Source: Chrysomallon squamiferum (lineage: Eukaryota > Animalia > Mollusca). Taken from it: a stretch of DNA of 64,000 bases. A program made the translations under genes and the position numbers. Positions 44,113-54,628 of this stretch are shown here, one piece after another; position 1 is the stretch's first letter, and every line of letters begins with the position of its first letter. The notes under the pieces were generated by a model, which was not told where the DNA came from, did not search any database, and worked only from the letters and a program-made list of their open reading frames with translations. The DNA lies in contig CM022679.1 of assembly GCA_012295275.1 (NCBI GenBank), forward strand, positions 4,526,001 through 4,590,000. Direction: 5' to 3'.

Positions 44113-44321
44113 ATGGAGGAGAATGACGCGATCGCCATCGTTGGCGTAGGAGGGCGATTTCCTGGCGCAAACAACATCGACGAGTTCTGGCAAGTGTTAC
44201 TAAAGGGAGAGAATCATTTGAAAGAAATTCCACCAGAGAGATGGAATCTGGAGGCGTTTTATGACGATGATCCTGACGCACCTGGAAAGACTTATGCCAG
44301 AAAAGCTGGACTTTTATCAAA
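44113..44321 (+). CDS. PKS exon 1 (KS N-terminus)
   Basis: [29 protein letters not shown]... Confidence 0.92.
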
Positions 44322-45107
44322 GTAACATTACTTATTTATTTATCTATTTACGTATCACCTTTTTTCTGCGTATCACGTCTTTATATTTCTGTTCATTCAT
44401 TTTGAACCACAAATAAGAAGGATGCTTCATGTATATTTTACTCTAGCGATTTTATTGTGGAAAGTACATTGTTATTGATATTCATTTTATATAATTATTT
44501 ATATTCATTGTTTGCGATTTCAGTTATGATGAATTTGATCACAAGCTGTTCGGAATTCACTTTCAAGAAGCTGAGAGAATTGATCCGCAGCAGAAGTACG
44601 TACTGGAGTGTGTCTTCATGGCTTTACAAGATGCTGGAATCACCAGAGAAAATATACAAGGCACCGACACCGCGGTCTACATAGGTATTGTAATTTAATA
44701 TTTATATTTTAACACACACAGACACGCGCACACACATTATTACTATTACTATTACTATTATGATTATTATTATTATTACTATTATTATTATTATAGTCTA
44801 TTCCTATTATTACACAGATGATATAATGTTTGTATCTTTTTACTTTAATCATTTAATTTTTATGTTTCAATATCATCACATTAGCACATTTAGCTTATTA
44901 CATACGCACTCCCATATGTATATGCATGTATGAATATATGAATATATATATATATATATATTATGAGTTTTATTGTTGTTATTGTTCTTTTTGTTGTTGT
45001 TGTCGTTGTTGCTTTTAGCAGATTCTTTTTATTACACAGATGTAACTTTTCTATATTTATTTTACTCTCTCTATCTTTCGTTCTCTCTCTCTCTTTCTCA
45101 CTCTCTT

Positions 45108-45170
<63 letters not shown>

Positions 45171-51100: not shown

Positions 51101-54100
51101 AAACTGATCAGACCCGATAGAGCAATCTTGTTTTCTGAGAGTGAGAATATTATTTCTAATCCATTTTTTGAATATGACAGTCAAAACGAATTCGGTTCAA
51201 ATTCACACACTGTAGATATTAGGACATCAAGCATAGTGATGCATAGCTCTTCACTTTTCCAGGAATGCGTTCCAGGTCGTCAGTCATCGATCTTTGGCAC
51301 AAATATAATAACACTTGAAGGAGTTGGAAACGTCTCTACACAAAATGATGCAGAAGAGAATGTGGCGTTTTTATTTCCTTGCAATGCCGGTTCAGTAATC
51401 ACAGTTCCCCTGCACTGCACGATAAATATCAAGAAAATTCCATTTTACACGCCAGGACTTCTGACTAAACTGTATCTACTCTGGCACCATTGCCTGTTAC
51501 TGGAAAAACAGCAGGAAATTATGAACAAATCTAAACACAGGTTCCAGCTGCCCTTTTGCAGATCTTGTAAAGGAAAACTAACAAATGTTGTCATTCTCTG
51601 TTCTGAAATGACTCTTTCAGTTGCAAAGGCACTTGCACTGATGCTCCAAGCGGAAAATAACAAAAAGGACATTGAAATTCAAATATTTCATATCGACACT
51701 CACACCACTGTTCAAACGAATTACGAAACGATAATTTTCTCCACGGTTCAGATGAAAGGCAATGTTATTCAAGCAATCTGCAAATATTGGCCTGATGCTA
51801 AATATCTGATATGCATGGCTCAGTTGCTTCCTGCACATGCTGCTCAACAGCTAAGTAATTACAATCAAATGCTTGAGATCCACAGAATCAGATGTAATGA
51901 TATTTTTACCTGCAGTTCAGTGATAGCTACACTGCCCAAACTGGCTGCGTGGATTTCAAACAAAAATAACTATGTCAAAGAAATAGCAGAAACATTAAAA
52001 GAACTTCCAAAAGACAAAATAAAATCCAGTATCCTTTCTATGATGCACTGCTCTACCATTAAGGTTTTCGACAGCAGTGGTGTTAGTCATCTGCCAGTGA
52101 AATCTACAGAGAAAGATTTACTTCGTCCTGATGGTCTCTATGTTGTAGTAGGTGGTCTAACTGGCCTCGGACGGGAATGTGTCAAATTTCTGGCTGAGAG
52201 AGGAGCAGGCGCAATTCTGATTATGAATCGCCGAGAAGCACAGCGAGATCAAAAAGAGGAACTAAAAGAACTGGAGACTTGCTTTGGCTGTAAAATTGTT
52301 GCCGATCAGGTTGATGTCACGGACATGTTATCTTTGGAAAATTCTCTGAAAGCAGTTGAAGCTAAATTACCAAAATATAAGTTCAAAGGAGTTTTCTTCG
52401 GAGCTGGAGTTCTTGCAGACACGACAATGATCAATATGACAAAAGACATGTTTCAGAAGGCGGCTTTACCCAAGATACAAGGTGCGTGGAATATGCATTT
52501 TCTCACCAAAAACATCCCTCTTGACTTCTTCATCATGCATTCTTCAGTTGCAGCAGTATTTGGAAACCCTGGGCAGTCAAACTATGGAGCAGCCAACGCC
52601 TTCCTAGATTCATTAGCGCACAACCGCAGACAGGCTGGACTTGCAGCACAGAGCATCAACTGGGGACCTCTTAAACTTGGAATGTTGAACGAGAAACCCG
52701 AGCTTGTGCAAGCATTAGAAAGAGCAGGATATATTCCTCTTAGCGTTGAAGAGATCCATAAATGTCTTCTTTCCGCACTTATGTTAGACAAGCCTTCCAT
52801 CTTGGCAGCCAAATTTAACTACAGTCAGTTAGCCAACAGCATTCTTCATGAGAACAATGACGTACTGGAGTTCAAAGTAAGCTCTATCCTTGATATTCCG
52901 ACAGCTGAAAATGTCAAAAATGACACCTCAGATATCAAACAACACATCAGCATAGAACAGCTTAAAAATATGGACAGTAGTAAACGACTTGAAACGGTAA
53001 GAAAATTCATCATTGAACTGTTGGGAAATGTTCTCAGCTTCTATCTAGCAGCTTTCGATTTAGATAAAGGTGTGCAAGAGTTGGGATTGGACTCGATGCA
53101 AGCAATGACCACCAGCAACCAAATCAACCAAACGTTTCGTGTACGGATCACTCCGGCTGGTCTTTTACAGCAAAACCTGACAGTAAATGGGATCACAGAG
53201 CAAATTAATTCCTCTTTGTTTAATCAAGACCATTCACCTGTTATTGTAGATCCTAACAGCACTTCAGCTTTACTTGAACAGTCACTGTCTTACATGGAGC
53301 ATGTTTTCTATAAGATGTACTCTGAAAACCCTGCTGACCCCAGTTTATTTTTCCTGGCTGAATTAACACTTCCAGACTCTGCAGCCAATCCAGAACTGTG
53401 GAGAAGGGTATCCGCAGAGCTGATGTCAAGACACGAAGTTCTGAGGACTACGTTTGAAAAAGTGCCGGAAAGTGAAAACTTCAGATGGAACGTGAAGAGA
53501 AAAGTGAATGCAGTAGGAATGAAACCTGATTTCACGGTACTGGAAACAGAACAGTTGGCTGAAATAGAACAGAAAACAAAAGAAGCTTTTCATTTAGAAA
53601 CAAAAGGTCCACTTCGCTTTATTCTGATTCATGGTAAAACATCGCGTTTGAGAATAGTGTATAACAACATCGGCTTTGATATGCAAGCCATTGGCGTGAT
53701 ATTTCAAGATCTTATAACAGTTTTTATCTCTGTCCAGTTTATGCTGACACTTCTAGATCTGAAAACTGTGGGAGGAAGTCTGATAGTCGTGGAGATGGAG
53801 AAGATACTGCAGGAGAAGGGTGATGAACTGAAACACTTCTGGAAACATACACTTGATGTTGATATTCCAGAAATTAGCTTAGGCGATGTAAATCTTCAGA
53901 GAGAAGTGACATTTGAAACATTTGGAAAAGAAAAGGTAACTCTGACACGTGATGTTTATGAATCACTTCAACGACTGTCCATGTCAACTGGCTTGAGCAT
54001 GTTCAAGCTGCTGGCCTCAGCTTATCAACTACTACTCCATCTGACATCCGGTGAAGCCGTTGTCGTTCTTCTAGCTGCAGTCGACGTCAAGCAGTACATT

Positions 54101-54628
54101 GGAAGCGTCAGTCACGCCGTGGGGAGGGGAGCAAATCTCATTCCTTTGTTATCCACGTTTTCGTCCGATGACGTTAGCTGCGCCGACTTTCTCAAGAGCA
54201 ACGGAACTTCAATTCAGATGTCTCTAGATCACTGCTTGTGTCCACTGGATGTCATCGAGGATCTTGTCAGCGCTGAGAAATTCAGAAACATTACTAGAAA
54301 TAAGATAGTCATGGTCGAAAACGATTTTTCTGTATCTTTGTCACAGCTGGGAAAAGAAAGAGGCTATACATTTGACATCATCAGAGCCGAGGACATGGGG
54401 ACTCATGCAGAGGCCCAGCTCAGTTTGTGGAATAGTCCAAAAGAAAAGAAAATGACACTTGAACTGACGTACAACACAAATGTTATATCCTCCAAACGCG
54501 CTAAAACAGTGATGCGCGCTCTTAGAGACATTGCTATTAAAATTGGCAACGACGTCAGTCTCACGATTGCAAGTTTGCGGAGCATAGGAAGCCTTGAAGA
54601 GATCAACTCACTCGATGCTTACCTGTAG
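44113..54628 (+). CDS. Animal iterative type I polyketide synthase, KS-AT-DH-pseudoKR-pseudoER-KR-ACP-C(-like), about 2,540 aa; two frameshifts as assembled (error or recent pseudogene)
   Basis: Exons 44113-44321, 44524-44684, 45194-45391, 45848-46029, 47136-47310 and 47937-54628 have GT-AG sites in compatible phase. Motifs: [78 protein letters not shown]-like RHEVLRTTF. Frameshifts at about 49290 and about 50570-50630. Confidence 0.93.
44524..44684 (+). CDS. PKS exon 2 (KS)
   Basis: [54 protein letters not shown]. Confidence 0.92.
45194..45391 (+). CDS. PKS exon 3 (KS catalytic Cys)
   Basis: ...[23 protein letters not shown]... Confidence 0.93.
45848..46029 (+). CDS. PKS exon 4 (KS)
   Basis: [11 protein letters not shown]...[20 protein letters not shown]. 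Confidence 0.93.
47136..47310 (+). CDS. PKS exon 5 (KS)
   Basis: [10 protein letters not shown]...NQDGR...IDYIEAH. Confidence 0.93.
47937..54628 (+). CDS. PKS exon 6 (6.7 kb: end of KS, AT, DH, pseudoER, KR, ACP, C-like)
   Basis: Three consecutive ORFs (47999-49330, 49383-50633, 50618-54628) form one collinear PKS. Confidence 0.9.

Follow-up and report, generated by a model that had tools for sequence, protein, structure and literature searches.

Condensation-fold tail lacking both motif histidines in a polyketide synthase of Chrysomallon squamiferum, a candidate iterative polyene synthase

Molluscs have a clade of polyketide synthases (PKSs) for which two architectures have been described, with and without condensation (C) domains, and whose few introns are N-terminal (Lin, Li, Krug and Schmidt 2024, PMC10764717; this and the other papers cited are drawn on in part). 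The supplement of that study includes an antiSMASH record ending in Condensation_LCL and places Gigantopelta and Chrysomallon under "clade6", which is presumably the PKS clade; its available portions give no product and leave aside both the active site of C and the enoylreductase (ER). In vertebrates, iterative PKSs of related layout lack a thioesterase (TE), and one of them, MuPKS, makes C14-C18 polyenes owing to its inactive ER (PMC6334511); chicken GgPKS1 gives the same psittacofulvins as product in yeast (PMC7036892), and related vertebrate PKSs are needed for otoliths (PMC10764717). A terminal C-like domain is also known from the fungal lovastatin synthase LovB, whose CON domain has an Arg in place of the catalytic His and is required for the correct product, not for its release (PMC6260248). 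Here we describe a PKS gene of the snail Chrysomallon squamiferum, found in a stretch of 64,000 nucleotides (the window; assembly GCA_012295275.1, contig CM022679.1, positions 4,526,001 to 4,590,000 of the forward strand). The gene lies on the forward strand at 44113..54628, and its product reads ketosynthase (KS), acyltransferase (AT), dehydratase (DH), pseudo-ketoreductase (pseudoKR), an ER-position domain without cofactor motif (ER0), catalytic ketoreductase (KR), acyl carrier protein (ACP) and C. The layout KS-AT-DH-KR-ACP-C was already published for molluscs (PMC10764717), and the novelty implied by an earlier, sequence-only reading of the locus does not hold. What is new is that the C fold lacks its histidines, that no mollusc-type homologue keeps both of them, and that the tail can be lost.

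The gene is a real, single-module type I PKS. Six exons with GT-AG introns join into 2536 codons without an internal stop, two frame breaks being read as X, and all five introns fall within the part that codes for KS. Exon 1 (44113..44321) holds the start codon and the KS N-terminus (ketoacyl-synt Pfam, E 2e-17), exon 2 (44524..44684) continues KS between AG/GT borders with a tblastn match of 75% to a homologue (P0004), and exon 3 (45194..45391) carries the catalytic Cys of DTACSS (near 45337; Pfam, splice join). Exons 4 (45848..46029) and 5 (47136..47310, with EAH) also code for KS and were placed by splice joins and tblastn; intron 5 interrupts the EAHGTG motif, and GHLE follows at 48047. 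The last exon (47937..54628, 6.7 kb; ORF list, Pfam, splice join) encodes the end of KS and everything from AT to the C-like domain and the stop codon. Pfam recognised KS, AT, PS-DH, KR, PP-binding and Condensation in the protein and listed no ER, methyltransferase (MT) or TE family at E<=1. No intron-skipping joints occur among the contigs compared, which says nothing on expression.

The earlier reading hinted at a frame correction of the cDNA, and two breaks do exist in the last exon, one of one extra base (49289..49292) and one of two (50577..50586). They are most likely assembly errors rather than defects of the gene, because near-identical contigs, with 0-8 other letter differences, lack the extra bases. 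This check was made on contigs of eight of the nine runs carrying the stretch, among the matches listed, and one run is possibly the source of the window assembly itself. At the first break contigs without the extra base are found in all eight runs; at the second, contigs lack both bases in 6/8 runs, the other two having no bridging contig among the matches listed. Of the contigs that bridge this second break, four show no more than 0-2 further differences from the window and two are paralog-like; at several places two or three diverged versions (paralogs or alleles) appear.

The catalytic residues of KS, AT, DH, KR and ACP are intact, and in the spliced translation each motif stands where the sequence-only reading had put it. 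AT (48554..49500) has the Ser of GQSIG (near 48824), the conserved Arg and TAFH; DH (49638..50480) has its His in EHRFSG...P (49737) and its Asp in LDAMFQ (50226); the catalytic KR (52115..52870) has GGLTGLG (52151), LAD, Lys, Ser and NYGAAN (52580); and ACP (52985..53210) has the Ser of GLDSM (near 53090), all four domains being supported by Pfam and a motif table. Among 46 aligned rows, the KS Cys/His/His, the AT Ser, the DH His and Asp, the glycine motif and Tyr of KR and the ACP Ser are conserved in every row that covers them, and the AT Arg and KR Lys are present in 46/46. The Arg together with AFH, instead of YASH, we take to be the code for malonyl, and LxD in KR (here LAD) presumably marks a B-type domain that feeds a DH. 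A structural pseudoKR subdomain (50485..51100; hhalign 98.4% to a bacterial pseudoKR, and a structure match) follows DH. Only 85 amino acids separate the DH Asp from its start and no S-adenosylmethionine motif occurs there; thus there is no room for an MT, as had been claimed, and none is present before the pseudoKR. TE is also absent.

Between pseudoKR and KR lies a region of ER size (51100..52100) that lacks the glycine-rich NADPH motif, which bears out the earlier description. In a global profile alignment, VILCSEMT (near 51590) occupies the slot of the bacterial LIHAAAGGVG; LIHxxxGGVG is found at that position in 22 of 24 bacterial ER-bearing PKSs (29 were picked and five removed for want of a KR anchor), and a Gly pair in only one of 75 animal-type rows, an amphioxus protein. 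The AlphaFold model of pseudoKR-ER-KR (predicted local distance difference test, pLDDT, 88.3) finds its best structural match in a MAS-like DH-ER-KR region (E 6e-34), with 577-677 residues aligned to ER-bearing synthases vs 342-406 to ER-less KR structures. The 50 rows of this structure match contain no stand-alone medium-chain dehydrogenase/reductase enzymes and are filled by KR-type folds, and the ER stretch by itself hits no Pfam family. An ER fold without its cofactor motif appears well supported by these predictions, though indirectly.

The protein ends in about 440 amino acids after ACP, followed by a stop codon and no adenylation (A) or thiolation (T) domain downstream. This tail (53270..54605) matches Pfam Condensation (E 6.6e-19, 68.4 bits, cut-off 30.6), as expected from the C-like domain that the sequence-only reading had seen in place of a TE. 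Its fold is also predicted with confidence: the ACP-C model has a pLDDT of 90.6, and the tail aligns to the C domain 7kvw of a nonribosomal peptide synthetase (NRPS) with Z 37.5 (root-mean-square deviation 2.6, 420 residues), to the non-catalytic CON of the lovastatin-type synthases MokA/LovB with Z 34.4, to SgcC5 with Z 32.4 and to PapA5 with Z 25.7. Two points had gone unnoticed earlier: the window contains the 3' end of the gene three more times, as described below, and both motif histidines are absent, HHxxxDG of NRPS C domains reading NNIGFDM here (NNIGFD at 53663). The earlier suggestion of release through this domain by ordinary condensation chemistry is not borne out, given that second point, and binding of the chain by the C-like domain is likelier than release through it. 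Not one of the 75 rows of the mollusc-type alignment, many of which are related and hence not independent, keeps both His. They are both lost in the window protein and its 12 closest relatives; the other 62 homologues keep the first (40), the second (19) or neither (3), and 61 of them keep the Asp. Seen another way, 59/62 homologues outside the Gigantopelta-type subclade have exactly one motif His, first or second, and never both.

The best full-length matches of the protein are five Gigantopelta aegis proteins (55-56% overall, 54-56% over KR-ACP-C), with two more G. aegis proteins and six others of similar identity, and the next relatives, at 26-34%, come from Patella, Haliotis, Aplysia, Physella, Biomphalaria, Batillaria, Babylonia and bivalves. 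A chiton and a land snail also have homologues, and most relatives share the same Pfam order. Several paralogs per species occur in Gigantopelta, Patella, Haliotis and Batillaria, and the expansion of PKS copies is not peculiar to the lineage of the window. We built a KS tree of 49 rows (the window, 32 animal and 16 bacterial), FAS (animal fatty acid synthase), AFPK (animal FAS-like PKS), MuPKS, OlPKS and SpPks lying outside it; a homologue search with KS returned chiefly multi-module bacterial PKSs, of use only as outgroups. In this tree the window joins five Gigantopelta proteins (100/100) inside a mollusc clade of 29 rows (100/99) that broadly tracks mollusc groups and is sister to C-less PKSs of fish and amphioxus, the joint clade having 32 rows (100/99). 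The kinship to the MuPKS/OlPKS layout proposed earlier is upheld by this sister group. When the KS end and AT were compared with PDB structures, bacterial PKSs scored 200 bits, LovB 141, EcPKS1/2 112-123 and FAS 110-119, so that FAS and EcPKS1/2 were the lowest scorers among type I synthases (110-123 bits). Together with the introns, this agrees with the earlier view of a host-encoded gene that is not a FAS; to judge from its relationships, it is most likely a vertically inherited animal PKS and neither a FAS nor a symbiont gene.

The tail is among the fastest-changing parts, with 17-24% identity to other molluscs vs 51-60% for KS, and 50-54% to Gigantopelta-type copies. In a tree of C domains, those of molluscs fall together (97) and an amphioxus C domain (HHIATD) is their sister, with 100 in the Shimodaira-Hasegawa-like approximate likelihood ratio test; this was a quick tree with a long-branch warning, in which 21 presumably bacterial NRPS domains, chosen for their length, stand apart. 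C-less mollusc PKSs sit among C-bearing ones at two places of the KS tree (99/96 and 96/96) and end 46-73 amino acids past the ACP Ser, like the fish proteins. Such patterns are to be expected of an accessory domain: they can be explained by a single ancient gain, a decaying active site and recurrent losses. By analogy with LovB, the tail thus likely serves for binding, in an accessory role, and not as a release catalyst. The amphioxus protein (P0401, Branchiostoma floridae, 3113 amino acids) reads KS-AT-DH-KR-ACP-TE-C. Its C domain groups with those of molluscs and its KS lies apart, which suggests the transfer of an ancient animal C domain from one PKS lineage to another.

Compared with described systems, the snail protein is closest to the C-bearing mollusc PKSs of Lin et al.: it shares KS-AT-DH-KR-ACP-C, the lack of TE and the few N-terminal introns (PMC10764717). 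Its KS falls in the mollusc clade and its C follows ACP, as judged here without the profile models or sequences of that study; it differs in belonging to a subclade that lacks both motif His. The origin of the C-terminus is also seen differently, recombination being suggested in the available part of PMC10764717, whereas the present KS tree favours an ancestral C with repeated loss. The vertebrate iterative PKSs (MuPKS, GgPKS1, ApPKS and OlPKS type) share the core KS-AT-DH-ER0-KR-ACP and the absence of MT and TE, and fish proteins of that layout form part of the sister group in the KS tree, but they end after ACP (about 2100 amino acids), whereas the snail protein adds the C-fold domain. LovB and MokA likewise have ER0 and end in a C-like domain whose HHxxxD is broken; they are, however, fungal, have an active MT and a dedicated trans-acting ER (LovC), and read HRxxxD where the snail has NNxxxD. 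The resemblance of the tails is taken as an analogy. The C domain of amphioxus P0401 groups with mollusc C domains against bacterial NRPS ones; the protein differs in having a TE, which the same type of Pfam scan finds there and not in the snail PKS, in keeping HHIATD, and in a KS on a long branch outside the mollusc/fish clade. With animal FAS and AFPK (EcPKS1/2), only the general type I domain order is shared: the active ER, pseudo-MT and TE of FAS are absent, and the genes of both are dense in introns, unlike the snail PKS. Among the literature searched, from which subscription journals were mostly absent, there is no characterised product for any C-bearing mollusc PKS and no paper linking the family to shell polyenes; nothing was found on a host PKS in searches for Gigantopelta or Chrysomallon with polyketide, and the available portions of PMC10531068 and PMC11460185 add nothing on the mollusc PKS-C family.

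How might such an enzyme work? The interpretation that we put first, on an even balance of judgement, is that of an iterative synthase of unmethylated conjugated polyenes whose His-less C tail binds or passes on the chain and does not release it. KS, KR and DH would cycle iteratively on malonyl units without enoyl reduction, each cycle presumably including reduction and dehydration, so that an unmethylated conjugated polyene would build up on ACP, as with MuPKS and GgPKS1. A polyene is expected because the ER lacks its NADPH-binding motif. The C domain would hold the chain or hand it on, and the chain would be freed by hydrolysis or by another enzyme, a route suggested for vertebrate PKSs without TE. 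Iteration, the choice of malonyl, the polyene itself, the non-catalytic role of C and the release route are all deduced from the domains and their relatives. The polyene named by the sequence-only reading is a reasonable deduction, and a pigment (shell or skin) or biomineralisation role a candidate one; the product might equally be a matrix lipid or act in defence.

A number of observations weigh against this scheme. The C-domain His is not strictly essential in every NRPS, and the catalytic second His is kept in 19/62 of the other homologues. The ER identity of 51100-52100 rests on position and predicted fold, and this stretch alone has no significant profile match to active bacterial ERs (hhalign 1.1%). 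Between the snail and the fish PKS, KS identity reaches only 49%, and that the fish proteins are orthologs of MuPKS/OlPKS is suggested by their layout, MuPKS and OlPKS being outside the tree. The closest relatives come from a deep-sea vent snail, for which a display pigment would be hard to motivate. Sequence does not reveal what an iterative PKS makes (PMC6334511), and LovB, with ER0 and a C-like tail, makes a partly reduced product using a separate ER (PMC6260248). Finally, the authors of the pearl mussel study taken up below invoke naphthoquinones, and its PKS genes are only putative members of the mollusc PKS-C family (PMC12652611).

The last example but one leads to the alternative that we regard as a real but clearly lesser possibility, a LovB-like or programmed synthase, in which a trans-acting ER or skipped KR/DH steps would lead not to a pigment but to a partly reduced lipid, hydroxy acid or pyrone. 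This might be secreted, e.g., as a cue for the mineralisation of the shell, a role that has been put forward for fish and sea-urchin PKSs. LovB has the same ER0 and degenerate C and depends on LovC (PMC6260248), the snail tail matches MokA CON (Z 34.4), related vertebrate PKSs are needed for otoliths (PMC10764717), and the family is retained in chitons, bivalves and gastropods, coloured or not. Yet LovB belongs to a fungal lineage with an MT and scores 141 bits over KS-AT vs 200 for bacterial PKSs, the 64-kb window shows no recognisable gene for a reductase or a tailoring enzyme, and MuPKS and GgPKS1, which also lack an ER activity, yield polyenes alone in yeast (PMC7036892). If the tail were instead a release catalyst, it would pass the finished chain from ACP to an amine or alcohol acceptor, so that an amide or ester results, much as PapA5 works for Mas, and it would do so without His, by positioning the substrates. 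Its position is that of a release domain in a protein without TE, its predicted fold is intact (pLDDT 90.6; PapA5 Z 25.7; SgcC5 Z 32.4), it is 50-54% identical to Gigantopelta-type copies, and other homologues keep the Asp (61/62) and one His (59/62), with HHIATD in amphioxus. The loss of both His in the window protein and its 12 closest relatives, the repeated origin of C-less forms and the rapid change of the domain (17-24% identity to other molluscs vs 51-60% for KS) make this unlikely.

It seems quite improbable that the window copy, one of a multi-copy family, is a recent pseudogene: its catalytic residues and splice sites are intact, its 2536 codons have no internal stop, and near-identical contigs (0-8 other letters) lack the extra bases, even if the assembly has two frame breaks, decayed fragments lie nearby, the ratio of nonsynonymous to synonymous rates (dN/dS) is about 0.6 against the copy next to the assembly gap, on only 33 differences, and the contigs are compatible with this single allele being broken. 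An animal FAS or AFPK, or a bacterial PKS-NRPS fragment that belongs to a symbiont or was transferred recently, is largely refuted and may be set at the very bottom of the scale. The fold of C is of NRPS type, bacterial PKS structures outscore animal FAS on the KS end and AT (200 vs 110-119 bits) and the KS tree is without FAS rows; against this stand the spliceosomal introns and the eukaryotic RING-finger neighbours, a KS tree that broadly follows mollusc groups, the lowest scores among type I synthases for FAS and EcPKS1/2 (110-123 bits), and the absence of TE and pseudo-MT in a gene with few introns. We give just as little credence to the making of a macrolide antibiotic, the product claimed for MpES of a clam (KS-AT-DH-KR-ACP). 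By the usual logic of PKSs, a single module whose AT is of the AFH type and which lacks an active ER is no plausible maker of a methyl-branched macrolide, and MpES is only a putative member of the mollusc PKS-C family, although it is reported to be a bivalve PKS of the animal clade with mantle expression and an RNA interference effect on the erythromycin signal (PMC9894158).

The gene has company in the window. Positions 26858-36751 and 53799-64000 form a repeated unit whose copies lie about 27 kb apart in a tandem duplication, 27058-32818 matching 53799-59502 at 91% and 32814-36751 matching 60104-64000 at 96%. Of the three additional copies of the 3' end of the PKS gene, one (27058..27887, forward strand, 276 open codons, 95% DNA identity) begins right after a gap of 200 N (26858-27057), in which the remainder of a tandem paralog, and so a second full gene, may lie concealed. 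The other two, found on the forward strand by comparing the window with itself, are 5'-truncated ends of the C domain (34774..35403 and 62030..62659) with an identical in-frame stop; both cover the last 209 codons of the domain, start at one common base and are also visible as loose ends in three runs. Among the window copies dN/dS is 0.4-0.6, on few changes and with the stop-bearing fragments included, and was not used to judge function. Further upstream, RING finger exons on the reverse strand (13005..15690; Pfam, E 8e-9) with a weak SAM domain (E 0.007) resemble what we take to be the bifunctional apoptosis regulator BFAR, and a duplicated exon (23162..23920 and 25064..25805, 82% identical, without Pfam match) encodes a hydrophobic stretch and GLWQTC, presumably reminiscent of claudin/PMP22-type proteins.

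Many mollusc shells and pearls are coloured by unmethylated psittacofulvin-like polyenes, as Raman spectra indicate, and we know of no enzyme tied to them. The mollusc PKS-C family has suitable chemistry on paper and is present in chitons, bivalves and gastropods. In the pearl mussel Sinohyriopsis, PKS genes follow nacre colour: two tandem genes are up in purple or golden vs white nacre mantle (values 0.16/5.49/0.69 and 0.00/4.09/5.00), and a patched-domain gene is upregulated with them in coloured nacre (PMC12652611). Since PTCHD3 reportedly also adjoins most MpES homologues across animals (PMC9894158), a patched-domain protein is a possible transporter partner for the PKS product; PTCHD3 was not seen among window ORFs of at least 80 amino acids (1-40000) or at least 100 (40000-64000), no direct search having been made. 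As a tentative and, taken whole, rather doubtful extension, the PKS-C family might be the source of the unmethylated polyenes of shells and pearls, early animals having gained C once and remodelled it as a pocket without catalytic activity, there to hold or deliver the reactive polyene, and vent snails having expanded the fully His-less form for some purpose unrelated to vision, e.g., the chemistry of the shell coat or the control of symbionts. With the architecture already published, the gene itself will not surprise a specialist. Its value lies in a sharper hypothesis, in which the C tail is probably no release catalyst and can be lost, and in a testable link between this family of synthases and the polyenes of mollusc shells.

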